Notes: generated from the sequence alone by a model not told the origin. A DNA stretch of 39,598 bases from Armatimonadota bacterium (GCA_040289385.1 PSLB01000004.1:1-39598), one strand, 5' to 3'; shown: positions 1 to 39,598, numbered from the stretch's first letter. Program-made: numbers and translations.

Positions 1-136
1 TGTGTCTTGCAGCTTCGCTGGGCCGGCCGACGCCATCGCTGCGGAGAACATCTGCAGGGCCGCCCCTATGCGGCCGGACGCGGCGGGCCACCCGTCCTAG
101 CTACAAGCCCCTGGCTTTAGCCATGGGGTTCATGAC
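1..136 (+). repeat. Partial, diverged member of the hairpin-ended repeat family; the window begins inside it
   Basis: Carries the conserved terminal module CAAGCCCC-TGGC-TTTA-GCCA-T-GGGGT (104-129, hairpin 108-128), followed by tcaTGAC where the other copies have agtTGAC. The interior is GC-rich with further hairpins (GGCCGC-N6-GCGGCC, CTGC-N11-GCAG). Only the end module aligns to the 237-bp copies. Confidence 0.5.
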
Positions 137-280: not shown

Positions 281-2335
281 ATGGAATGGAACTGGGATCT
301 GATAACGCGTCACACCTATATCGGTGTTTCTCCGATTCTAAAGCTGTTGTTCTATGGGATTATCTTCGGTTCGTTAGGTGTGGGGGCTTACTGGTACTGG
401 AATCGCCTTCGGATTTGGCGTCAGGGTCAGCCAGATGCAGAGCGATTGCCAATACGAGTGCGCCTCTCGAATATGCTGGGCTACGCTCTGGGACAGAAGA
501 AAGTGCCTCGCCATCGCTTTGGCGCGCTCTTCCATATCCCGCTTTATGCTGGGTTCGTGATACTGTTCATCGGCACCACTTTGCTGGCTATCGCAGAGTG
601 GACGGAAATTGGCACAGGCATCTTTCTGCAGGAGGGCATCTGGTTCCACAAGGGGCTTTACTACATTCTCTATGAGGTAACCTTAGACCTGTTTGGGTTG
701 GGGGTAATCTTTGGCTGTCTGCTGGCACTCTATCGGCGTCATGTGCAGAAGCCCAAGTCGGTCAGTTTGGAGCGTCTCGATGGCGTTGCCGTCTGGCTTC
801 TGCTGATCATCTGTCTGAATGGGTATGCACTGGAAGCTGCGCGCATCGCTTTGGAACGCAATCCGGAGTTTATGAATCCACCACGCCCTGCCTATGCCCA
901 GATCTGGTCGTTTGTAGGCTATTCGCTTTCTCCACTGTTCGACAACATCACCGTGGGCACCTATCGGCTGTGGTGGTGGTTTCATGCACTCTCAATTGCT
1001 GGCTGGTTCACCGTTCTACCCTTCACACGGGTTCGGCACTGGTTTTTGGCGCCGATTGTGGCGTTTTACAAGCCGAACTATCTCCCGAATGTGCCCAGCA
1101 TCGAGAGCCTCGAACGCGTTGAGCAGACTGGAAAGATCGGGGTCAACTCAATCGGTGAGTTCTCGCGCTGGCATTTAATGAGCCTCGATGCCTGCATGGG
1201 ATGCGGGCGGTGTGAGCGCGTCTGTCCAGCAAACGCCACGGGAAAGCCGCTGAACCCGAAGCGTATCGTTGAAAAGCTCCGAGAGGCGATGACGAACGGC
1301 AAAGGCGACGATCTGACTCAGGTCATTAGCGATGAGGAGCTTTTTGCGTGTACCACCTGCGGCGCATGCAATAACGAATGCCCTGTGCTAATTGAGCATC
1401 CGACCCTGATTATGGAGATGCGCCGACACCGCGTCGCAGAGGGCAAACTGCGAGGCACAGCTGCCACCACGCTTCAGCGCACAATGACCCAATCGAACCC
1501 TTGGGGGCTCCCGCTTGCGGAACGCATGAAGTGGGCAGAAGGGCTAAATGTGCCCACCGCGCGCGACAATCCCCAATTCGAGGTGCTGTTCTGGGTCGGT
1601 TGTGCAGGTTCATACGACTCGCGCGGGCAACAAGTGGCGCGTGCGATTGTGAAACTGTTCCAGCGGGCAGGGGTCAACTTCGCAATTTTGGGACCCGAAG
1701 AGCGATGCACAGGGGATACACCCCGTAGGCTCGGCGAAGACCTGATGTTCCAAGAACTGGCTCAGCAGAATGTGCAAACGCTATCAACGTACCAACCCCG
1801 CCGAATCGCGGTGATGTGTCCCCACTGCTTGCATACCCTCAAAAACGAGTATAAAGCTTTCGGAGCACACTACGAAGTGGTACACCATTCGCAGTTTCTG
1901 GTGGAGTTGATTCAGCAAGGGCGTCTCCCGCGCCCTGCCCCCCTCTCCAACGGCTCGGTGGTCTTCCACGATCCATGCTATCTGGCGCGAGTCAACAAAG
2001 TGGTGGACGCGCCACGCACGGTGCTCCAAGAGTCGGGTGTAGAACTCAAGGAGGCAGAACGCCACGGAGACCGAACCTTCTGCTGTGGCGCGGGAGGCGG
2101 GCGCATGTGGATGGATGAACTCCCTCATGAGCGTCCGGGATCGATTCGCGCGGAGGAGCTCCTCGAGACTGGAGCGCGCACGGTCGCCGTAGGCTGTCCG
2201 TTCTGCATGATTATGGTCTCCGATAGCGTCAAGCAGAAGGACGACCGCGTGCCTGTCAGAGATATTGCGGAGATCCTTCTGGAGCGCATCGAGGCAGGTG
2301 AAGTCGTGCCTGCTGACGCTGTAGGAGAGGCTTAG
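281..2335 (+). CDS. Membrane-anchored Fe-S oxidoreductase of the HdrD/DsrK/GlpC type, with an N-terminal polytopic membrane domain
   Basis: 684-aa ORF. The N-terminal ~250 aa contain several hydrophobic helices. Two 4Fe-4S ferredoxin motifs are present (CMGCGRCERVCP, CTTCGACNNECP). Two cysteine-rich CCG-type domains follow (CPHCLHTLK, DPCYLAR, CCGAGGG, GCPFCMIMV). Confidence 0.8.
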   Translation: MEWNWDLITRHTYIGVSPILKLLFYGIIFGSLGVGAYWYWNRLRIWRQGQPDAERLPIRVRLSNMLGYALGQKKVPRHRFGALFHIPLYAGFVILFIGTTLLAIAEWTEIGTGIFLQEGIWFHKGLYYILYEVTLDLFGLGVIFGCLLALYRRHVQKPKSVSLERLDGVAVWLLLIICLNGYALEAARIALERNPEFMNPPRPAYAQIWSFVGYSLSPLFDNITVGTYRLWWWFHALSIAGWFTVLPFTRVRHWFLAPIVAFYKPNYLPNVPSIESLERVEQTGKIGVNSIGEFSRWHLMSLDACMGCGRCERVCPANATGKPLNPKRIVEKLREAMTNGKGDDLTQVISDEELFACTTCGACNNECPVLIEHPTLIMEMRRHRVAEGKLRGTAATTLQRTMTQSNPWGLPLAERMKWAEGLNVPTARDNPQFEVLFWVGCAGSYDSRGQQVARAIVKLFQRAGVNFAILGPEERCTGDTPRRLGEDLMFQELAQQNVQTLSTYQPRRIAVMCPHCLHTLKNEYKAFGAHYEVVHHSQFLVELIQQGRLPRPAPLSNGSVVFHDPCYLARVNKVVDAPRTVLQESGVELKEAERHGDRTFCCGAGGGRMWMDELPHERPGSIRAEELLETGARTVAVGCPFCMIMVSDSVKQKDDRVPVRDIAEILLERIEAGEVVPADAVGEA

Positions 2336-3613: not shown

Positions 3614-6600
3614 TCAGATCTTCGTTTCAGTCTCTTGCTCAGCTAGAACCACCACTGCGCGTCGGCGCCACAGCAGACGCCCCAGCCACTGGGTGAGGTC
3701 ATCCATAACCGTATACATGCATGGAATCACCAACAGGGTGAGGAATGTGCTGACACTCACCCCGCCGATGAGAACAATCCCTAACGGCGAACGGAACTCA
3801 CTCCCACGCCCCACGCCCAGCGCAATCGGAATCATTGCCAGAATCAGCGTGAGCGAGGTCATCAGGATCGGGCGTAACCGGATAGGTCCTGCCTCTAAGA
3901 GTGCTTCGTTGCGTGCTAACCCGCGTTCGCGCAAGGTGTTGGTGTAGTCTACCAGCAGGATTGCGTTTTTGCCCACTAGCCCCACAAGCGCGATAATCCC
4001 GATCATGGAGATGATGTTGAGCTCCGAGCGAGCGAGCACCAGCCCTAAGAGCGCCCCAACCAACGCTTGAGGCTGGCTGAACATGATAATGAAGGGGTAG
4101 AGCCAGTTCTCAAAGAGCACCACCATGAGCAGGTAGACCAGAATAAGCCCCAGCAAGAGCGCTTGAACCATGTAGACGCCCTCGCGCGCTATCACTTCGT
4201 TCTCGCCAAACCATTTAGCAGAGACCCCTGGCGGGATGGCGTTCGCCTCGCGTAGCGCTTGGTCTATTTGCACACGCAGGTTGCCTGGCGTATATCCGGG
4301 CATCAGATTGGCGGTGACGGTGACCCGTCGCTGTCGGTCTACGCGTTCTACCTTCGACGGACCTTCACCCAACTGAATGCGTGCCACATCGCGTAGGAAA
4401 ACAGGGGCGCCTTGAACATAGGTCACCACGAGGTTCTCCAGATCTGCGGTGCGTCGACGCTGTGCCTCGCTTAGGCGGACGCGAATGTCGTACTCCTGTC
4501 CCCCTTCCCGATACTTAACGCTGGTATCGCCTTCGTAAGCGGTGCGCAAGGCGAGCGCAATTTCGGCAATACTGACCCCTAACTGGGTGGCACGTGCGCG
4601 ATCGACAACCACTTGGAGCTCGGGACTACCTGCCGTCCAAGAAAGGTTGGGGTCTTTGATACCAGGCATCCGGCTGATAATCTGGCGGGCGCGTTCGGCA
4701 GTTTCCAGAAGGGTCTGGGTGTCCTTGCCAACCAGTGCAAGCTGGATCGGGGCGCCGAACCCGCCACCGCGAAAGCCCGAAACTGGATTGACAGCAATCT
4801 GCGCTCCGGGAATATCGCCGATCCGCTGGCGGAGTTCGCCTGCGACCTCCACATCGCTTCGGGTGCGCAAGGTTTCCTCATGCTTAACCCAAAAGCACAG
4901 ACTATCTAAGAGCGCTTTCTTTTCGTGTAGGCTGACCTGAAGATTGGCGTAGCGTACCCCGACATCGCCGCCACCGACAAAGCCTCCAGAAACACGCCCC
5001 ACAATCGTGGAGACATACTTAACCTCAGGAATCTGGAGCGCCATCGACTCGATGTGTTGAACCACCTTGCTGGTCTGCTCAAGAGAAGTGCCCGGAGGCA
5101 TCTTGACAGTGATATTGATTAATCCCTGATCTTGTGAAGGGGCAAAGCGGAAGGACAGCAGGGGGCTCCCGCGCGCTGCCGAGAACCCTATCACAAATAG
5201 AACCGCTACCAAAGCGCCATTCCCTATCAGGATTACAGCCCAGCGGTGGTGTAACGCCCAGCGGAGCGCGCCACGATAGACACGCTCCAAGCCCTTATAG
5301 AGGCGATCTAGCCAACGGAAGAAGCCCTTCGGTTCCTCCAGAGCCTCACCACGCCGATAGAGCCGACTCGCCAGCATCGGTGTCAGCGTGAACGAGACAA
5401 TTAGCGAGAGCAGAACCGCAACCGCAACCGTTAACCCGAATGAGCGGAAGAACTGCCCCACTACCCCGCCCATAAAGGCTATCGGCACAAACACTACCAC
5501 ATCAACAAAGGTAATGGTAATCGCGGCCAATCCTATCTCGGTGCGTCCGTTGTACGCCGCCTCCATCGGGTCTTCGCCCATCGAAAGGTGGCGGTAGATA
5601 TTCTCAATCACCACGATCGCGTCATCTACCAGCACCCCGACCGCCAGCGAAAGCCCCAGCATCGTCATGAAGTTAATGCTGAAGCCCGCGAAATACATAA
5701 AGATAAAAGTGGCAAAGAAGCAGGTTGGGATCGCCATCGCCACAATAAACGACCCGCGAATATTATACAAAAACAGGTAGATGATCAGCACCACCAATAC
5801 GATAGCGATGCCCAACGCTAACCGCAGGTCCGCCAAGCTCTCTCGAACCGCTTGGGCTTCCTCTTGAGTGATGGTGAACTGGATATCGGGATACTCTTGC
5901 TTCAGTTGTGCCAAAACTCGCTTGATGCCCTCTGCAATCTCAATCGCGTTGCCGTCGCTCGTCTTTTGGACGACGATGGAGACATCCTCTTTACCGTTCG
6001 TTCGGGTAATGATGGTACGCTCCTCGACGCTGTCTCGGATATCCGCCACATCCTGGAGGCGGATGGTGCTGCCGCGAGCCATCGGGTTGCGTGGGTTTTG
6101 CAGGTAAAGGCGCAGTTGGCGCAGATCATCGATCGACTTGAACTCACCCAGCAAGCGCACGCTATATTCGCGCGCACCTTCCGTAACCCGCCCTGCAGGC
6201 ACATTCAAGTTGGCGCGTTGCAGAGCACCAACGACCGCGTTGATAGAAAGCCCATAGGCGTTGAGACGGTTCTTGTCGATAGCAACCTGAATTTCGCGTT
6301 TTTGCCCACCGCTCACCGTCACGGCAGCAACCCCCGGCACACTGGAGAGGCGATCTTTAATGAGATTATCCGCCAGATCGCGCAGTTCGTAAGCCGGGCG
6401 CGCACCCGCCAGGGAGATAAACATCGTCGGCTGCGACTGGGTATCCAGCTTACTTACCACAGGTCGCTCCGCATCTTGAGGAAGCTGAGCGATAGCGGTG
6501 TTAATTTTCGCCTGCACATCGATATAGGCTTGCCCAATATCGGTGCCGATATAAAACTCCAGCACGACCTGTGAGACTCCGTACTGCGAAGTAGAGGTGA

Positions 6601-6838
6601 TTTGGCGGAGCCCCTCCACGCCTGCGACCGCATCCTCAATCGGTTTCGTTACAAGCGTCTCTACCTCATCAGGTGAGGCGCCCGGATAAACCGTGATGAT
6701 AGTGATAACAGGAAAGTCCACTTTCGGCTGAAGTTCAACCTGCATCCTACTGAGCGAATAGAACCCCAGCACAATCACCGCCATGACGAAGGCCATAATC
6801 GTGATGGGGCGGTTAAGCGCCAATCGTGTTGCCCACAT
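3614..6838 (-). CDS. RND efflux transporter permease (AcrB/HAE1-like)
   Basis: 1074-aa ORF with the 12-TM plus two large periplasmic loop organisation. The N-terminus RPITIMAFVMAVIVLG and motifs such as VLVDDAIVVIENI are typical. It is the last gene of the TetR-TolC-MFP-RND operon. Confidence 0.95.
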   Translation of the reverse strand: MWATRLALNRPITIMAFVMAVIVLGFYSLSRMQVELQPKVDFPVITIITVYPGASPDEVETLVTKPIEDAVAGVEGLRQITSTSQYGVSQVVLEFYIGTDIGQAYIDVQAKINTAIAQLPQDAERPVVSKLDTQSQPTMFISLAGARPAYELRDLADNLIKDRLSSVPGVAAVTVSGGQKREIQVAIDKNRLNAYGLSINAVVGALQRANLNVPAGRVTEGAREYSVRLLGEFKSIDDLRQLRLYLQNPRNPMARGSTIRLQDVADIRDSVEERTIITRTNGKEDVSIVVQKTSDGNAIEIAEGIKRVLAQLKQEYPDIQFTITQEEAQAVRESLADLRLALGIAIVLVVLIIYLFLYNIRGSFIVAMAIPTCFFATFIFMYFAGFSINFMTMLGLSLAVGVLVDDAIVVIENIYRHLSMGEDPMEAAYNGRTEIGLAAITITFVDVVVFVPIAFMGGVVGQFFRSFGLTVAVAVLLSLIVSFTLTPMLASRLYRRGEALEEPKGFFRWLDRLYKGLERVYRGALRWALHHRWAVILIGNGALVAVLFVIGFSAARGSPLLSFRFAPSQDQGLINITVKMPPGTSLEQTSKVVQHIESMALQIPEVKYVSTIVGRVSGGFVGGGDVGVRYANLQVSLHEKKALLDSLCFWVKHEETLRTRSDVEVAGELRQRIGDIPGAQIAVNPVSGFRGGGFGAPIQLALVGKDTQTLLETAERARQIISRMPGIKDPNLSWTAGSPELQVVVDRARATQLGVSIAEIALALRTAYEGDTSVKYREGGQEYDIRVRLSEAQRRRTADLENLVVTYVQGAPVFLRDVARIQLGEGPSKVERVDRQRRVTVTANLMPGYTPGNLRVQIDQALREANAIPPGVSAKWFGENEVIAREGVYMVQALLLGLILVYLLMVVLFENWLYPFIIMFSQPQALVGALLGLVLARSELNIISMIGIIALVGLVGKNAILLVDYTNTLRERGLARNEALLEAGPIRLRPILMTSLTLILAMIPIALGVGRGSEFRSPLGIVLIGGVSVSTFLTLLVIPCMYTVMDDLTQWLGRLLWRRRAVVVLAEQETETKI

Positions 6839-6850
6839 CGTGTTGCCTCC

Positions 6851-8296
6851 TTAGTTTTCGGAACGGTTGTTGAGAATGCGTACGGGTTGCCCATCACTCA
6901 GCAGGTCTTGCCCGCGTATGACCACCGTTTCCCCTGCCTTGATCCCTTCTGCATAGACGGTCTCGGTATTCGTGGCGCGTACTTTCAGCAGGCGCGCTTT
7001 GGCTTTCCCGTTTTCCACCACATAGACACGGGTTGTGCCTCCCTTCTCGATGAGAGCGATTTTAGGCGTGAGAGGGACATTGTTGTAGGTGCGGAGCGCG
7101 ACTTCCCCACGAGCGAACAGCCCCGTCTTGAGCGGGAGATCGGCGGGGTTGCTGAGACTGATGCGCAGGCGCAGGTTGCGTGCAGGGTCTGCAGTGGTAG
7201 GATAGATCGCCTCCACAATGCCCTCGAAGGTGCGATTGGGAAAGGCATCCACCGACACGCGAACGGGCATGCCGACCCGCACCGAGTCCAGCAGAGTTTC
7301 GGGGAGGGTCGCTTCGAAGTAGAGCCGATCCAGCTTAATCAGTCGCACAACGGGCGTGCCTGGTCCTGCTATCGAGCCGATATCGAGGAATCGGTCGGCG
7401 ACGGTTCCATCAAAGGGGGCACGGATAAGGGTGTCTTCCAGTTGCTGTTTGAGCAGCGCGTATTGGGCTTTGGCTTGGGCGAGTGCGGCGCGCGCGGCGG
7501 CGACCCGTTGCCGTGCCATTTCGATGTGGGCGCGTCCGAGCAGAGCCTGTCGATAAGCCTCTTCAGCTTGCTTGACTGCCTGTTCTGCCGATTCGATCTC
7601 TTCTCTACGCGGTCCCTCTTGGACGAGGCTAAGAGTCTCTTCTGCTTGACGGAGTTGGGCTTGTGCCGATTCATAGGCGGCTTTGGCGCTATCGAGTTGT
7701 TGTTTGGGGATGGCGCCTTGCTCGTAGAGGCGTTGGGCGCGTTCGTAGTTGGCGCGCGCCAGCTCGAAGTTGGCGCGTGCGGCGCGCACGGCTTGTTCGG
7801 CCTGTTGGCGTTCTTGGGGGCGTGCCCCCACCTGCAGGGCACGCAAGCGCGCTTGGGCAGAGAGTAGCCCGGCGCGTGCGGTCTGAATCTGAGCCGCTAC
7901 CTGATCAGGTTGGATGCGGGCAGTGGTCTCCTCCTGCTGGAGATTGGCTTCTGCGGTGCGGATGCCAGCCTCCGCTTGACGCAGTTGAATGCGCAAATCT
8001 GATGGATCTTGCACTGCAATCACTTGACCCTTAGCCACCCGATCGCCCGTCTGCACGCGCATCTCTATAATCTTGCCCCCAACTTTGGTGGCGACGATTG
8101 TATCGTTGTAGGCAGTGAGTTCGCCTGTGACGGAGACGGTCTCGGTCAGGGTGCCCGGTCGGACGGTTGCGGTCTCGACGGAGACTTCGGTGCCTGGCTC
8201 TGCTTGAGCTTGGGGCGCCGTGCGTCGCCCACAAGCGGACAGGCTGAGTGCAAGCGTTACGAGAATAAGGCTTATAGGGAATGTTTTGAGGTTCAT
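6851..8296 (-). CDS. Efflux RND periplasmic adaptor (membrane fusion protein, HlyD-like) with an unusually long Ala/Gln/Arg-rich coiled coil
   Basis: 481-aa ORF with a lipoprotein-like signal (LSLSAC). It has a barrel-sandwich motif, a long coiled-coil hairpin and a C-terminal beta domain. Its start overlaps the tolC-like stop. Confidence 0.9.
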   Translation of the reverse strand: MNLKTFPISLILVTLALSLSACGRRTAPQAQAEPGTEVSVETATVRPGTLTETVSVTGELTAYNDTIVATKVGGKIIEMRVQTGDRVAKGQVIAVQDPSDLRIQLRQAEAGIRTAEANLQQEETTARIQPDQVAAQIQTARAGLLSAQARLRALQVGARPQERQQAEQAVRAARANFELARANYERAQRLYEQGAIPKQQLDSAKAAYESAQAQLRQAEETLSLVQEGPRREEIESAEQAVKQAEEAYRQALLGRAHIEMARQRVAAARAALAQAKAQYALLKQQLEDTLIRAPFDGTVADRFLDIGSIAGPGTPVVRLIKLDRLYFEATLPETLLDSVRVGMPVRVSVDAFPNRTFEGIVEAIYPTTADPARNLRLRISLSNPADLPLKTGLFARGEVALRTYNNVPLTPKIALIEKGGTTRVYVVENGKAKARLLKVRATNTETVYAEGIKAGETVVIRGQDLLSDGQPVRILNNRSEN

Positions 8297-10326: not shown

Positions 10327-10492
10327 GGGGGGGTAGGGATGTTCGACCTTGAGTTGTCCCCATCTTCCCACACCTACCCCCAGCACACACAACCCACACA
10401 AAAGACGCACCACCAGCCCCATATTCCATACTAGCAGTTGCCTCGTAGAGATACAGATACGCCAAAATCGACCTTATCAAGGACGCAACCCA

Positions 10493-10522
10493 TTGACAAA
10501 CGCCCAAAAAATGGGCTATATA
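10493..10522 (+). promoter_or_regulatory. Divergent sigma70-like promoter (TTGACA-N18-TATATA) pointing into repeat copy 1; no intact gene lies behind it
   Basis: TTGACAaacgcccaaaaaatgggcTATATA read directly on the plus strand. The next coding sequence is the WD40-dockerin remnant beyond the repeat. Confidence 0.45.
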
Positions 10523-10578
10523 TAACCAACACGAAGCGCACCACTTCCTACACGCAGACCAAGCAGAAGCTCGCTTCA

Positions 10579-10815
10579 CCACCTCTTGGACGCGCCGCCG
10601 GGAGCCCCGGGCTTGAGCCCTGGGGAGGAGGCGGCGCTCCCTCCCTTCCATCATCATGTGGTATAATGCGAGCATGCGGACATCAACGCTGCCAGGAATA
10701 TCCGCAACCGCTATACCGTCTCTCGGGACGGTGGGCCGTCGTCAACCGGCCCCGAAGCCCTGCCCGGCTTGCCGGGCGAGGGCAAGCCCCCGGATTTAGC
10801 CGTGGGGTAGTTGAC
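10579..10815 (+). mobile_element. Hairpin-ended 237-bp repeat, copy 1 (non-autonomous element / structured RNA candidate)
   Basis: Manual alignment of its reverse complement to 22642-22878 gives 235/237 identity. Bulged hairpins lie at 10605-10625 (CCCC GGGC TTGA GCCC T GGGG) and 10787-10807 (CCCC CGGA TTTA GCCG T GGGG). An internal TGgTATAAT sits at 10659-10667. The flanks differ on both sides immediately outside these coordinates. Confidence 0.85.
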
Positions 10816-11341
10816 ACATCCAAGCCATGAGGTAAACGATGAGGAATCGGTACATTTCCTCACAGGGCACACGAATTGGGTCTACTCTGTTCCCTTCTCG
10901 CCCGATGGGCAGTCGCTGGCGAGTGGGAGTTGGGATGCCACCATCAGGTTGTGGCGGGTGTTGGATGGCACTTTAGGGCGCACCTATAATCAGGAAACAG
11001 GCACGGCTGTGCGTTCCATCCAGTTCTCGCCTGATGGTCGGTTGTTCTTCTACGGGCGTACAGACGGTACTGTAGTAGTGGCACGCAATCCGTTCTTCAC
11101 CGAGGTGAATGGCGATGGCTGTGTAGACGGTGCCGATCTGCTGGCGGTGCTGTTTGCGTTTGGTCAGTGTGAGTCGGGCTTGCCAGAAGATGTGAACGGT
11201 GACGGCGTGGTAGAAGACGCCGACCTGCTGAGGGTGTTGTTCCACTTCGGGATTGGGTGTCGAATCCCCACCCTAACCCTCCCTGTGAAAAAACAGTTTT
11301 CGGATAGGCTCTTAGGCGCGGTGGGGTTCCCCTATTCCTAA
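10811..11341 (+). pseudogene. 5'-truncated WD40-repeat protein with a C-terminal dockerin-like double repeat (probable gene remnant)
   Basis: Only about 2 WD40 repeats are present (LTGHTNWVYSVPFSPDGQSLASGSWDATIRLW; SIQFSPDGRLFFYGRTDGTVVV), followed by VNGDGCVDGADLLAVLFAFG...VNGDGVVEDADLLRVLFHFGIGC. The only in-frame start is a TTG inside the repeat end. Sequence upstream of the repeat is not WD40-coding. Confidence 0.5.
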
Positions 11342-19680: not shown

Positions 19681-21372
19681 ATGCGAATAAGAACGAGCCT
19701 TTGGGTGGGTTTATGGAGCCTTATTGGGAGCGTCTATGGGCAGGCACTGGTCGATACGAGCCTTACATACGATATAGTCGTCGCTTCGGGACTGACCACC
19801 CCTATTGCGATTGCGTTTCTTAACCCTGCAGAGGCGAACCGCTTCTTTGTGATTGAGAAAAACACAGGGCGGGTCAAGCTTGTGGAGAATGGGGCGGTGG
19901 TTGCTACCGTGCTGGATTTGCCCGTGAACAACGCCAGCGAGCGCGGTCTTTTAGGGATTGCCCTTCACCCAGATTTCGCCAGCAACGGCTATGTTTATTT
20001 GTACTACACCCGCTCCAGTACGGGAACGGATACCTCGACCCAATCCGCCTGGACAGACAATCGTGTGGAGCGCTACACTTGGAACGGCTCCAGTTTGGCG
20101 AATCCCACCCTTATCGTCTCTTTTCCGCGCGATACCAGCCAGAACAACGGACCCAACCATGATGGCGGCGTGATTCTGTTCGGTCCGGAGGGCTTGCTGT
20201 ATGGGGTCACGGGCGATTTGAATCGGGGCACGCTTACCAACGGGCGCATCGAACAGAACACTAGCACCACAGCCGCTGCAGGGGTTGGCGGGATCTTCCG
20301 CCTGAACCCTGATGGTTCCATCCCACCCGATAACCCCTTTATTTCCCATGCAAATGAGCGTATCCAACGGCTATGGGCGTACGGCATTCGCAACAGCTTC
20401 GGCATGGTGTTCGATGCACTGACTGCGCGCTTGTGGCTGACCGAAAACGGACCGAATGTCTACGACGAGATCAACCTTGTCGAACGGGGCTTCAATAGTG
20501 GATGGCTCAAGATTATGGGACCCGATTCCCGCAATGCTACCTATGCCGAGAACGGCAACACCCCCTACAACGCCAGCGATTTGGTCTATCTGCCCAACGC
20601 CTACTATGCTGACCCCCTCTTCTCGTGGTTGACACCGATAGGGGTCACCAGTATCCAGTTTTTGCGTTCTGCGCGTTTCGATTCGAGCTTACGCGACCAG
20701 GCAGTGGTAGGGGAGTCGAACAACGGACAGCTTTACCTGTTTCGACTGAAGTCCACACGCGATGACTTTGACCTAACGGGCGCGTTAGCCGATCGCGTTG
20801 CCGATACAGCCACCGAGCGCAACAGTCTCACTTGGGGAACCAACTGGGGGATCGTGACCGATCTCAAAATTGGTCCGGACGGCTACCTATATGGGGTCTC
20901 GCTCTTTGCCAATCGGGTTTACCGCATCCGTCCTGTGAACCCGCCTCCGATTCTGAACGGGCGTGTGCTTTTGAATGGGCGTGCAGGTCTCCCACTCGGT
21001 GTGCCCTTGAGTCTCACTCTCCTGCAGAACGGCACTCCTGTGGAGACGATTGCAACACAGTTGGATGCTTATGGGCAGTTCTCCGAGCGGATTGCTGCAT
21101 CGGGTACCTACACGGTGCGTGCCAAAGCAGGCTCCTACTTATCGGTGAGCGTGTCGAATGTCACAGTCGGCGCAAGCGGGTTCGCTTACCTGCCTCTTCA
21201 GTTTACCGTCAATGGCGATGTGAACGGCGATGACCAGACCGACGATGCCGACCTGCTGAGTGTGCTGTTCGACTTTGGGCAAAGTGAGTCGCCAGCAGAT
21301 CTCAATAACGATGGCACGGTGGATGATGCGGATCTGTTGATTGTGCTGTTCAATTTTGGTTCCAGTGGATAG
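19681..21372 (+). CDS. Secreted PQQ-dependent (glucose/sorbosone-type) sugar dehydrogenase beta-propeller, with a C-terminal beta-sandwich and dockerin-like double repeat
   Basis: Signal peptide MRIRTSLWVGLWSLIGSVYGQ. GSDH motifs are present: ERGLLGIALHPDF, NHDGGVILFGPEGLLYGVTGD, AYGIRNSFGMVFD and ENGP..DEIN. The C-terminus reads VNGDDQTDDADLLSVLFDFG...NNDGTVDDADLLIVLFNFG. Alternative in-frame starts exist at 19663 and 19597. Confidence 0.85.
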   Translation: MRIRTSLWVGLWSLIGSVYGQALVDTSLTYDIVVASGLTTPIAIAFLNPAEANRFFVIEKNTGRVKLVENGAVVATVLDLPVNNASERGLLGIALHPDFASNGYVYLYYTRSSTGTDTSTQSAWTDNRVERYTWNGSSLANPTLIVSFPRDTSQNNGPNHDGGVILFGPEGLLYGVTGDLNRGTLTNGRIEQNTSTTAAAGVGGIFRLNPDGSIPPDNPFISHANERIQRLWAYGIRNSFGMVFDALTARLWLTENGPNVYDEINLVERGFNSGWLKIMGPDSRNATYAENGNTPYNASDLVYLPNAYYADPLFSWLTPIGVTSIQFLRSARFDSSLRDQAVVGESNNGQLYLFRLKSTRDDFDLTGALADRVADTATERNSLTWGTNWGIVTDLKIGPDGYLYGVSLFANRVYRIRPVNPPPILNGRVLLNGRAGLPLGVPLSLTLLQNGTPVETIATQLDAYGQFSERIAASGTYTVRAKAGSYLSVSVSNVTVGASGFAYLPLQFTVNGDVNGDDQTDDADLLSVLFDFGQSESPADLNNDGTVDDADLLIVLFNFGSSG

Positions 21373-22262: not shown

Positions 22263-23138
22263 ATGCGCTCTATCGGGCTCTGAGGGATTATTTTTCTGAT
22301 GCTAATAGTGCTGTGGGCACAAGCGGAGCCTACACCCCAAACAGTGCTGAATCGGCTTGTGCAGAAGGCACGCACGACGCGTGCCTATGCCTATCATTGG
22401 GAGCTCCAACAGCGCGACCCCCGCACCAATAAACTGGGCGAGAAGCAGGTCTACAAACTGGAACTGCTCAAGCCGCCCTACCGCAAGTTGACCATTATTC
22501 AGCGCGACCCTTTCAGTAACGGCGCTGTACTGATCTACAATCCCGATAAGGATAGAAAGTTCATGCACGCAAAGGATTGATCCACCGCACCTACGCGACG
22601 GACGATCCCGAAATAGCCGACTTCTTCCGAACCGATCTAGAGTCAACTACCCCACGGCTAAAGCCGGGGGCTTACCCTCGCCCGGCAAGCCGGGCAGGGC
22701 TTCGGGGCCGGTTGACGACGGCCCACCGTCCCGAGAGACGGTATAGCGGTTGCGGATATTCCTGGCAGCGTTGATGTCCGCATGCTCGCATTATACCACA
22801 TGATGATGGAAGGGAGGGAGCGCCGCCTCCTCCCCAGGGCTCAAGCCCGGGGCTCCCGGCGGCGCGTCCAAGAGGTGGATTGCGAAGGATATTCAACGCC
22901 TCTTCAAAGGCGCGAGAGCAGAACCCGTTCGGCGTGTGAAATACAACCGTCGCGACTGCTATCTGCTTGCTTTCACCACAAAGGATCAGACCTACACGCG
23001 CGTTGTGCTGTGGTTGGAAGTGAACGACTCGATGCCCCTCCGCATCGAGCCATCATGAATGCGAAGGGTCTTTACTCTGTGCGGGTGTATACCGATTACT
23101 CTTTCCCCAATCTGCGGGTAGGTGATTCCTCAGTGTGA
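22263..23138 (+). pseudogene. Decayed LolA-like / outer-membrane lipoprotein-sorting-fold gene, interrupted by repeat copy 2
   Basis: The signal peptide MRSIGL*GIIFLMLIVLWAQA carries an in-frame TGA at 22281-22283. There is a frame change near 22575 (..FMHAKD* then IHRTYATDDPEIADFFRTDLE). A 237-bp insertion follows, after which the gene resumes as IAKDIQRLFKG...VVLWLEVNDSMPLRIE. A second frame change near 23050 leads into NAKGLYSVRVYTDYSFPNLRVGD. Confidence 0.6.
22642..22878 (-). mobile_element. Hairpin-ended 237-bp repeat, copy 2, inverted relative to copy 1 and inserted in the LolA-like gene
   Basis: Two mismatches to copy 1 (22663 and 22674). Hairpins lie at 22650-22670 and 22832-22852. 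The internal TGgTATAAT is on the minus strand at 22790-22798. The host reading frame is recognisable on both sides. Confidence 0.85.
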
Positions 23139-25495: not shown

Positions 25496-25512
25496 TAGTC
25501 AACTACCCCATA
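25496..25512 (-). repeat. Solo 17-nt copy of the repeat-family terminus (TAGTCAACTACCCCATA)
   Basis: Identical over 17 nt to the end of the edge copy at 39522-39538. The 5' arm of the hairpin and the rest of the element are absent. Confidence 0.4.
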
Positions 25513-25635: not shown

Positions 25636-26331
25636 ATGAACGAGCAGATCGCACCCTCAGCAGTGGTACTGTTCTCTGGGGGACAGGACAGCACCACATG
25701 CCTCTATTGGGCAAAAAGACGGTTCGACGCCCTCTATGCGCTCAGCTTCGATTACGGTCAGCGACACCGCATCGAACTGGACGCCGCGCGCACAATCGCC
25801 CAGATGGCAGGGGTAGCACAACACCGAATCGTGAAGGTGAGCGCGCTGGAACAACTGGGGGATTCCGCCCTGCTCACCGACGCCCCAATCCAAGAGACAG
25901 GGGGGCGGGGCAACCTGCCCAACACCTTCGTTCCCGGACGCAACTTGCTCTTCCTCGTGCTGGCAGCCGCCTGGGCATACCAACTGGAGTGCCACCATCT
26001 GGTCGGTGGGATGTGCCAGACCGACTACTCTGGCTATCCCGACTGCCGCCGCGCGACCCTTGACACGCTGGAGCAAGCCCTCCAACTCGGCATGGAGTGG
26101 GAGATCCACATTCACACCCCGCTCATGTTCCTCACAAAGGCAGAAAGTGCCCGATTGGCGATGGAGGTGGGTGCGATGGAGGCACTGGCTTACTCCCACA
26201 CCTGTTATGAAGGGCGATTTCCGCCTTGTGGCACCTGCCCCGCCTGTCGCCTGCGGGCAAAAGGATTCGCGGAAGCCGGCATCCCAGACCCCCTGCTCCT
26301 CCGCTGGCACGCCGCCACCCAACGCGGATAG
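25636..26331 (+). CDS. queC: 7-cyano-7-deazaguanine synthase
   Basis: VVLFSGGQDSTTCLYWA (PP-loop), NTFVPGRN and the C-terminal Zn cysteine cluster C..C..C..C (CYEGRFPPCGTCPAC). A TATAAT box lies at 25592-25597 upstream. Confidence 0.95.
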   Translation: MNEQIAPSAVVLFSGGQDSTTCLYWAKRRFDALYALSFDYGQRHRIELDAARTIAQMAGVAQHRIVKVSALEQLGDSALLTDAPIQETGGRGNLPNTFVPGRNLLFLVLAAAWAYQLECHHLVGGMCQTDYSGYPDCRRATLDTLEQALQLGMEWEIHIHTPLMFLTKAESARLAMEVGAMEALAYSHTCYEGRFPPCGTCPACRLRAKGFAEAGIPDPLLLRWHAATQRG

Positions 26332-34924: not shown

Positions 34925-35854
34925 ATGCGCAAATGGGCAGTTCTTTGGGCAATCATGGTGGTGCTACCAGGCGTCGCCCAGCATGAGAACGACCTACTGT
35001 TTGGGGCTTCGGCGGGGCGAGCCACCATCATCCAGCCCGTCCCACACCCGGTGCGCCAGATGAGTCCGGTTGTGGGCAACTTTGTGCTGGATGTTGGGTT
35101 AGATTTCTACTTCGAGCCTGACACGGGTCTGCCTCAGCTTCAGTCGTGTCGCGTGCAACAGGTCTGGATCAGCCCTGGATTACTGGGTACGCGGTCTGGC
35201 ATGGGCACGGTTTTCTGCGAGGCAGGGTGCCAAAACTACTTCGACCTGCCGACTCGGGGCACTCCGCACCACCATCTGCTTTTCGCGGTGAACACAGCAG
35301 GCGTTTATGTGTGGGATGTGCGAGCCGTGCGTGCCCGCGATCGCAACGGAGTTCCACTCGCTGACATGGACGGGGTGTACCGCATCTATATGGTTGCGGG
35401 CACCCCGCGGCGGGTGTACGGCGATGTGGTCATCCGTTCCGCCTATCAGGGCGATCCGTATCTGCGCAGGCTCACTATCGCTTTACGCCGGAACGGACAG
35501 TTCCTTGCCCAGCAGACCCAGCCCCCCAACCCCAACGCCATCTATCCCTACATGGTGGGTTTCACTCAGTCAGGCACGGTGGATCTCGTCGCAAAGCTGG
35601 AAGGACACCTCTCCCGCCGCATCCGAGGCTTCGCCCTTACAGGAGCCCATCGGATCGATTGGGAGTTCACTGTCGCAGGCGACATCAACGACGATGATGT
35701 GATCGACGATGCCGACCTGCTGCAGGTGCTGCTCGCCTTCGGACAATCGGGAGCCAACCCTGCGGATGTGAACGGCGACGGTGTCGTAGATGAAGCGGAC
35801 CTACTGGTGGTGCTATTCAACTACGGCGCCACAGGGGAAGGCAGCCAGCCCTAA
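34925..35854 (+). CDS. Secreted protein: unknown His-rich N-terminal domain, a beta-sandwich and a dockerin-like double repeat
   Basis: Signal peptide MRKWAVLWAIMVVLPGVAQ, then HENDLLFG.. The N-domain is paralogous to the next gene. The C-terminus reads INDDDVIDDADLLQVLLAFG...VNGDGVVDEADLLVVLFNYG. A GGGAGG RBS is present. Confidence 0.75.
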   Translation: MRKWAVLWAIMVVLPGVAQHENDLLFGASAGRATIIQPVPHPVRQMSPVVGNFVLDVGLDFYFEPDTGLPQLQSCRVQQVWISPGLLGTRSGMGTVFCEAGCQNYFDLPTRGTPHHHLLFAVNTAGVYVWDVRAVRARDRNGVPLADMDGVYRIYMVAGTPRRVYGDVVIRSAYQGDPYLRRLTIALRRNGQFLAQQTQPPNPNAIYPYMVGFTQSGTVDLVAKLEGHLSRRIRGFALTGAHRIDWEFTVAGDINDDDVIDDADLLQVLLAFGQSGANPADVNGDGVVDEADLLVVLFNYGATGEGSQP

Positions 35855-39523: not shown

Positions 39524-39598
39524 GTCAACTACCCCATAGCTAAAGCTAGGGGCTTGCACCTAACCCGCTTCCGCGGGCTGGCACGATAGGCCGGTTGA
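39524..39598 (-). repeat. Partial, diverged member of the hairpin-ended repeat family; the window ends inside it
   Basis: GTCAACTA-CCCCATAGC-TAAA-GCTAGGGG-CTTG..., with the hairpin at 39532-39552. A second hairpin (CCCGC-TTCC-GCGGG) and the conserved GGCCGGTTGA occur at the same relative positions as in copy 2. Confidence 0.6.

Follow-up and report, generated by a model that had tools for sequence, protein, structure and literature searches.

The hairpin repeated along this contig is very probably the subterminal right-end stem-loop of an IS200/IS605-family, TnpB-type transposon, acting both as single-stranded DNA and as stem 4 of a guide RNA. The window (the whole stretch of DNA analysed) is a complete contig of 39,598 bp, and the family members in it are copy 0, two gene-less mini-elements (copies 1 and 2), copy 3 and a 15-nt relic (Table 1). 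The mini-elements and the hairpin belong to a known system: a TnpB transposon end explains the hairpin and nothing new has to be invoked. The first-pass annotation that drew attention to these hairpins did not name the type of element, which is an ordinary rather than a new one.

Table 1. Positions of the transposon-related features in the window
Feature	Position	Strand	Details and basis
Probable degenerate tnpB 3' end (..SCSFAGPADAIAAENICRAA..GHPS, stop TAG 98-100), gene mostly outside contig	2-100	+	translation; weak TnpB C-terminal profile match, E=0.2
Copy 0, diverged ωRNA-type scaffold and right end; tail UUCAUGAC (129-136), stem-1 loop CCCCUAUG	56-136	+	R1, 54 bits, E~1e-11
Hairpin, copy 0, CCCC-TGGC/GCCA-T-GGGG	108-128	+	location confirmed
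CCACC, probable target/transposon-adjacent motif (TAM), before copy 1	10579-10583	+
Mini-element copy 1, 232 bp, gene-less, PATE/MITE-like (left end, promoter-like motif, scaffold, right end)	10584-10815	+
Left-end structure, copy 1, outer stem GCGCCGCC/GGCGGCGC around the left-end hairpin, then AGGAG	10592-10637	+	read from sequence
Left-end (far-end) hairpin, copy 1, CCCC-GGGC-TTGA-GCCC-T-GGGG	10605-10625	+
TGGTATAAT (TGnTATAAT), extended -10 promoter-like motif	10659-10667	+	inferred; read from sequence
tnpB C-terminal relic, copy 1, EHADINAARNIRNRYTVSRDGGPSSTGPEALPGLPGEGKPPDLAVG (EHADINAARNI...GKPPDLAVG*), stop TAG inside GGGGTAGTTGAC	10670-10810	+	hmmsearch, TnpB C-terminal (TNB-domain) profile, E=1.8e-17
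Scaffold, copy 1	10732-10815	+	covariance model R1, 77 bits
Stem 1, copy 1	10733-10738/10747-10752	+	covariation
Pseudoknot, copy 1	10741-10746 with 10810-10815	+	covariation
Stem 2, copy 1, around variable hairpin 10762-10777	10757-10761/10779-10783	+	covariation
Hairpin, copy 1, CCCC-CGGA/GCCG-T-GGGG, right end of mini-element	10787-10807	+	location confirmed
Predicted guide segment, copy 1, flanking DNA, ACATCCAAGCCATGAGGTAA (ACAUCCAAGCCAUGAGGUAA)	10816-10835	+	analogy with TnpB ωRNAs (PMC10097598)
Mini-element copy 2, 232 bp	22642-22873	-	relic profile match, R1, repeat identity
Scaffold, copy 2	22642-22725	-	R1, 81 bits
Hairpin, copy 2, CCCC-CGGC/GCCG-T-GGGG, right end of mini-element	22650-22670	-	location confirmed
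Left-end (far-end) hairpin, copy 2	22832-22852	-
CCACC target/TAM motif, copy 2	22874-22878	-
15-nt right-end relic, TATGGGGTAGTTGAC, lacking the hairpin 5' arm	25498-25512	-	exact 12-mer GGGGTAGTTGAC; 15 nt identical to copy 3
Copy 3, right end/ωRNA scaffold cut by contig end	39524-39598	-	R1, 61-74 bits
Hairpin, copy 3, CCCC-TAGC/GCTA-T-GGGG	39532-39552	-	location confirmed
Variable hairpin, copy 3	39564-39577	-
Pseudoknot 5' strand and stem 1, copy 3	39589-39598	-

All four right-end hairpins lie where the first-pass annotation had placed them. The motif CCCCNNNNTTNANNNNTGGGG (CCCC-N4-TTNA-N4-T-GGGG) is found six times in the window, four times at right ends and twice at the far (left) ends of the mini-elements, against 0.01 occurrences expected, and none of 100 shuffled sequences reaches six. 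The second hairpin reported for copy 3 and its GGCCGGTTGA were likewise found, while the tail context given for copy 0 has to be corrected, the actual 3' neighbour of its hairpin being GGGGTTCATGAC and not GGGGTAGTTGAC. The stem changes had been described as paired (C:G to T:A and G:C to A:T), which holds for copies 0, 2 and 3 but not for copy 1 (CGGA/GCCG), where a single uncompensated C-to-A change relative to copy 2 leaves an unpaired A.G at the loop-closing position. The window alone contains only three independent stem sequences, and covariation taken from its copies without a larger sample is a hint rather than proof. The clamp, the bulged T and the TTTA loop, said to stay fixed, do so within the window, but in the wider family the loop varies or shifts (TTTA, TTGA, TTCA, TTTG and, in a Pyrinomonas MAG, TGCGC). 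The TTTA loop can also lie 1 nt further 3', giving an upper stem of 3 bp and a 2x1 internal loop in place of the single bulged T; this form is seen in many members from archaea (Methanosarcina, Asgard, Nitrososphaeraceae) and in some from bacteria (loci L015-L019, L034, L045, L048, L049, L054, L064, L073, L087 and others).

The larger sample comes from a scan of one genome per prokaryotic species with the pattern CCCC-N12-TGGGGTAGTTGAC, in which only CCCC, TGGGG and the tail are fixed, stem and loop being free. At least 82 loci from very diverse Bacteria and Archaea match this pattern, and most of the matches listed have in common a (C)AAG before the hairpin and a TTNA loop. Among the matches listed, 38 distinct hairpins have the geometry seen in the window; 97.7% of their cells are paired (81.9% when shuffled), and 46 cells are changed on both sides versus 13.0±4.7 in shuffles (0/500 reaching the observed value). 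Covariation is seen at each of the four variable pairs, where 4-5 standard pair types occur, and sliding the 3' partner by 1-3 columns as a control leaves no more than 10 double-change cells. Compensation in a larger alignment, which the first-pass annotation had allowed might prove no better than chance, is therefore above chance, and selection on the hairpin fold is supported. The accompanying statement that selection does not act on the sequence goes too far, since sequence is conserved in the CCCC/GGGG clamp, at the bulged T and in the TTNA loop, and also in the tail and in the (C)AAG that comes before the hairpin.

Relatives of this right end are found beside TnpB in many bacterial and archaeal phyla. 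Reading frames matching Pfam OrfB_IS605 or Cas12f1-like_TNB stop 8-98 nt before GTTGAC at four loci (L042, L057, L066, L072), tblastn places TnpB directly upstream at six (L008, L028, L041, L048, L060, L087), and on two annotated plasmids the gene that ends at the match is called 'RNA-guided endonuclease TnpB family protein'. The TnpB of L042 matches solved Cas12f and TnpB structures in sequence. The same linkage is visible in the mini-elements, as the right 146 nt of the repeat (repeat positions 92-237) share 92.5% identity with a tnpB 3' fragment and right end from Pyrinomonas sp. ERB_32_1 (L028). Their sole reading frame is a 46-codon tnpB relic, the copy 2 version of which matches the TnpB C-terminal profile with E=6.5e-18; an Armatimonadota MAG has a near-identical relic among its annotations, and Pyrinomonas MAGs contain close relatives. 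The hairpin is part of the TnpB frame in this subfamily, the stop codon being the TAG or TAA of GGGGTAGTTGAC (..GKPxxLxxG*; 10784-10810, L057, P0001, P0037, P0039), so that a protein tail, an RNA stem and a single-stranded DNA hairpin overlap in the same 21 nt.

The region upstream of the right end was modelled as a scaffold core of ~84 nt made of stem 1, a pseudoknot, stem 2/3 and the terminal hairpin as stem 4. From 5' to 3' the order is stem 1, a 5-bp stem carrying a variable hairpin, (C)AAG, the hairpin, UA-GUUGAC and then flanking DNA, with the stem-1 loop GUCAAC pairing with the 3'-terminal GUUGAC to form the pseudoknot. In an alignment of 26 scaffolds of the window's type, which is the basis of covariance model R1, the four helices are 97.4% paired and contain 66 double-change cells (19.9±4.1 in shuffled alignments, 0/500). 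Stem 1 (GGCYG/CRGCC) has U:A in place of C:G in 10 of the 26 scaffolds, all five pairs of the 5-bp stem enclosing the variable hairpin covary, and the pseudoknot between the stem-1 loop (GUCAAY) and GUUGAC is 100% paired. RNAalifold independently gives the same three nested helices, and R1 picks out this ωRNA/right-end type specifically.

As the first scan held the tail fixed, the pseudoknot was checked by separate scans forcing tail variants. A GTTTAC tail is accompanied by the loop GTAAAC (L092/L100, L094, L097, L098, L099 and the plasmid locus L090), GCTGAC by GTCAGC (L106-L111, L113, L107) and ATTGAC by GTCAAT (L114, L117); the pseudoknot thus changes on both sides in independent lineages. 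Scans of viral sequences with variants at two further pseudoknot positions (GTVGAC, GTTGBC) returned none. The hairpin being one of four covarying helices in a pseudoknotted scaffold points to RNA, and more precisely to a TnpB ωRNA; from this covariation, the 21-nt hairpin appears to be the last stem of a TnpB ωRNA (reRNA) scaffold. A second scaffold type with the terminal hairpin and tail in common was also seen (L011, L017, L019, L025, L026, L037, L045, L059, L077, L106-L113); its pseudoknot partner lies within ..TTAGGCTGGTCAACCAGGGCTT.., which could instead pair with AAGCCC at the hairpin foot.

The helix order of the scaffold is that of the ISDra2 ωRNA of Deinococcus radiodurans, known from cryo-EM (PMC10097598). 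Both lie over the 3' end of tnpB and end at the right boundary of the element, and the helices come in the same order: the stem-1 loop and the last 6 nt make up a pseudoknot, a variable stem 3 lies within stem 2, stem 4 stands just before the 3' strand of the pseudoknot, and the guide is flanking DNA. In ISDra2 that 3' strand comprises nt -6 to -2 and stem 3b is dispensable (PMC10097598), the variable apical hairpin here corresponding to the latter. The two differ in the length of the core (~84 nt here, 116 nt in ISDra2), in the pseudoknot loop (only 8 nt here), in the tail (GUUGAC here, C and A at -3 and -1 in ISDra2; PMC10097598) and in the TAM, which is probably CCACC here (TCATC in a sister group) and TTGAT in ISDra2. 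Rfam gave no match at gathering score across the window and nothing relevant at E<=10 in 10400-10900, the TnpB-associated families RF03065 and RF02998 included; there is no sequence match between the scaffold and these families, and the two models cover only a small subset of ωRNAs (PMC10055086).

The 237-nt repeats that contain copies 1 and 2 are 99% identical, in opposite orientation and with unrelated flanks. They have no terminal inverted repeats and no target duplication. CCACC directly precedes the left end at all five sites (copy 1, copy 2, L031, L077, L119), while in the sister group TCATC is found there, and the mobile unit is thus 232 bp long (10584-10815 and 22642-22873) rather than 237 bp. 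A metagenome scan for the deletion junction returned one further copy only, L119 (contig JGI25065J35084_100324, ~1300-1530, minus strand), which lies at a third, unrelated site behind TCCACC and is ~99% identical over 175 nt, its stem 2 and hairpin 5' arm being replaced by the perfect 28-nt palindrome GTAGGGGCACGGCATGCCGTGCCCCTAC. When the empty sites of copies 1 and 2 were rebuilt, no convincing interrupted gene emerged, and the predicted guides have no second target within the window.

Each mini-element carries hairpins at both ends, on one strand and with a shared geometry. The left-end hairpin has the same clamp, bulged T and TTNA loop as the right-end one and differs in its stem from the right end of its own element, and it is situated in the left 91 nt of the repeat, outside the ωRNA. 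The presence of a hairpin of the same geometry outside the ωRNA points to a Y1 transposase recognising folded single-stranded DNA. The first-pass annotation had left open whether the fold is selected as single-stranded DNA or as RNA; it is apparently both, the scaffold helices speaking for RNA and the left-end twin hairpin for single-stranded DNA. Left ends built alike were found at six other loci (L066, L077, L082, L030, L039, L085): at L066 the left and right ends flank a full TnpB, and L030, L039, L085 and L082 are gene-less elements of ~340-350 bp with a promoter-like motif at the same place. At L077 (a Thermogemmatispora MAG, 5695-7406) a left-end-type hairpin and a right end bracket 1.7 kb which, instead of TnpB, holds frameshifted IscB-like ORFs on the opposite strand.

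Such ends resemble those of IS608 and ISDra2, which are handled by Y1 TnpA (PMC5027513), in having subterminal hairpins on the same strand at both ends, an extrahelical T, no inverted terminal repeats, no target duplication and a fixed short motif 5' of the left end. For TnpA of IS608, a key determinant is the extrahelical T in the right-end hairpin, and the target is read by nucleotides 5' of the foot of the left-end hairpin (PMC5027513). For the family described here, no convincing rule could be derived by which guide nucleotides at the foot of the hairpin would pair with either cleavage site, CCACC or TTGAC. Unlike in IS608 and ISDra2, the left-end hairpin sits inside an extra outer stem and no copy was seen to have a tnpA nearby; neither in the window nor in the fetched loci did a crude HUH/Y motif scan detect a TnpA. 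From the mechanism of the family, the 21-nt hairpin would serve Y1 TnpA as a single-stranded DNA signal.

With this anatomy, which bears the hallmarks of the family, the 232-bp units are, as read from their sequence, gene-less PATE/MITE derivatives of IS200/IS605 elements. According to Meers et al. (PMC10055086), who proposed this use in trans, PATEs 'often encode ωRNAs' that require a TnpB from elsewhere, and like them and the PATE-like minimal elements of Geobacillus stearothermophilus (PMC10055086) the mini-elements are gene-less and keep both ends. They differ from PATEs in that their junction is resolved, the left end with its promoter-like motif being fused to tnpB at codon ~46 from the end of the gene so that the whole scaffold is left, and in their low copy number (two in the contig and one more in the metagenome scan). 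The promoter-like motif TGGTATAAT is located ~65 nt upstream of the scaffold core and ~148 nt upstream of the 3' end of the element. A scan with the sigma-70 consensus, for which a -35 hexamer is required, found no promoter, since TGGTATAAT comes without such a hexamer.

The main rival to a double role in DNA and RNA is a role in DNA only, in which the hairpin is a transposase signal and TnpA moves the mini-elements as plain PATEs or MITEs, their ωRNA part decaying unused as a remnant of the parent element. We regard this as possible, though on balance doubtful. The left-end twin with its identical geometry, the A.G mismatch in copy 1 and the disruption of the hairpin and stem 2 in L119 would all be in keeping with it, as would the state of the cognate TnpB proteins and the lack of a tnpB of matching type within the window. 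Nearly all of the closest TnpB relatives of the relic (P0001-P0046; L114, L117) comprise just 80-220 aa from the C-terminus, even where the contig is as long as 6 Mb, P0001 and P0039 being 5'-truncated or frameshifted tnpB relics; there is no full-length tnpB in the window, and neither an intact tnpB nor a tnpA was found for this clade. The prevalence of C-terminal fragments suggests that the lineage may be decaying and that its ωRNAs may no longer be used. These relatives form a 5'-deletion series in which the ωRNA-encoding 3' end is always kept (L117 has no left end), and serial 5' deletions of this type, to judge from the sequences, would fit either retention driven by selection or the mere need for a right end. 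Against a role in DNA only, the mini-elements keep the full 84-nt scaffold with stem 1, pseudoknot and stem 2 intact, and covariation of these three helices is seen across phyla as well as among copies 0, 1/2 and 3. TnpA is not known to require any of them. Independent mini-elements in Anaerolineales and other bins also retain both the left-end promoter-like motif and the scaffold.

A REP/REPIN-type palindrome mobilised by a RAYT, or an intrinsic terminator, would likewise be a GC-rich hairpin in intergenic DNA; the tail even has the GTAG tetranucleotide known from REP sequences, and contigs break at the hairpin, which is hence repeated. Both are nonetheless extremely improbable and are ruled out by the anatomy. 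The hairpin is followed by UAGUUGAC and not by a U-run, and a terminator scan did not report it; the 232-bp units, with their distinct left and right ends, are not doublets of the short palindromes (20-40 nt, at high copy number and accompanied by a RAYT gene) that characterise REP elements; and neither a REP nor a terminator accounts for the direct linkage to TnpB genes or for a pseudoknotted scaffold of several helices.

The position of the copies relative to genes has also to be considered, as 4/4 of them lie upstream of a gene on the same strand and the TGnTATAAT motif is directed into the flank. Downstream of copy 1, an ORF (10811-11341) with dockerin-like and WD40 repeats begins inside the end of the mini-element, its only early in-frame start (TTG) falling within the terminal GTTGAC. 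Paired dockerin-like repeats (DVNGDG..DADLL.VLF.FG) occur at the C-termini of three ORFs in the window (11085-11254, 21200-21359, 35664-35826). A cis-regulatory leader or mobile promoter, that is a structured RNA that controls or drives the downstream gene, could produce such an arrangement, yet we hold it to be very unlikely: the genes that follow the copies are not related to one another (Fe-S/CCG protein, WD40-dockerin protein, small ORF, BatA/VWA protein), relatives lie at tnpB 3' ends in many phyla, Rfam has no such family, and an orientation of 4/4 would arise by chance with a probability of ~1/16. The orientation is also predicted by top-strand insertion: in IS200/IS605 elements the top strand goes into the lagging-strand template, and for genes transcribed in the direction of replication this template is the sense strand, so that a same-strand orientation is expected (PMC5027513, together with our own reasoning). 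A combined role, in which mini-elements are free-standing guide-RNA genes with a promoter of their own, recruit a TnpB made elsewhere, and by reading into the neighbouring gene act as mobile promoters and start-codon donors as well, seems unlikely too; if true, a single primary transcript would be both guide RNA precursor and host mRNA, coupling host expression to maintenance of the transposon.

Copy 0 is a diverged member of the family following what looks like a degenerate tnpB 3' end, which stands directly before the scaffold as at TnpB loci elsewhere; between its loop CCCCUAUG and its tail UUCAUGAC four pseudoknot pairs are preserved, of which two have changed on both sides. Copy 3 is truncated because the assembly breaks at the repeat, and L002 lengthens it by 13 nt, with the expected GGGCCGTTG. 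Both contig ends (1-136 and 39524-39598) lie inside TnpB/ωRNA repeats, as do the contig ends in all other assemblies of the same organism (L001-L007). Copies 0 and 3 could not be extended through those assemblies, none of which crosses the repeat, every one breaking inside it. The 15-nt relic, a fifth trace of the family that had been missed previously, includes an exact 12-mer for which a stray occurrence in 79 kb of two-strand sequence has an estimated chance of ~0.005. It is found ~125 nt upstream of, and divergent from, a queC-like ORF (25636-26331).

A life cycle in keeping with these features can be proposed. The right-end hairpin with its bulged T and its left-end twin, in the top strand, would be bound by Y1 TnpA for peel-and-paste transposition, and the element, terminating in ..GTTGAC, would insert after a CCACC target. 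Encoding no transposase, the mini-elements would be moved in trans, as single-stranded circles, by a Y1 TnpA encoded elsewhere. From the left-end promoter an ωRNA would be made whose guide is flanking DNA (ACAUCCAAGCCAUGAGGUAA for copy 1); by analogy with known systems the scaffold would be transcribed, bound by TnpB and used to guide TAM-dependent cleavage. A TnpB encoded elsewhere could load the mini-element ωRNA and cut the emptied site (CCACC followed by the guide), after which recombination would restore the mini-element. What the sequence shows directly is that the mini-elements have intact scaffold helices and sit at unrelated sites behind CCACC, each with left end, promoter-like motif and full scaffold and right end. 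Stem bases would be free to change as pairs because neither protein partner, we propose, needs their identity. In ISDra2 the WED domain of TnpB holds the upper part of stem 4 through mainly electrostatic contacts (PMC10097598), and contacts of this kind would explain why stem bases drift as pairs.

A covarying hairpin at a contig end is thus explained cleanly as the right end of a TnpB transposon. The ωRNA/right-end type to which it belongs, (C)AAG-CCCC-stem-TTTA-stem-T-GGGG-UAGUUGAC, is very widespread and has no Rfam model; the lineages carrying it include Acidobacteriota, Chloroflexota, Bacillota (Selenomonadaceae, Alicyclobacillus), Cyanobacteria, Methanosarcina, Nitrososphaeraceae, Halobacteria and Asgard archaea. 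Its 21 nt apparently serve as RNA stem, as single-stranded DNA hairpin and, in this subfamily, as the last codons of TnpB, which makes for a compact case of overlapping constraints. The mini-elements show what survives serial deletion, namely the left end, the promoter-like motif and the whole scaffold, and this is consistent with their providing guide RNAs in trans. For work on this TnpB clade they also supply a candidate TAM, CCACC, and a minimal scaffold of natural origin that is ~84 nt long.
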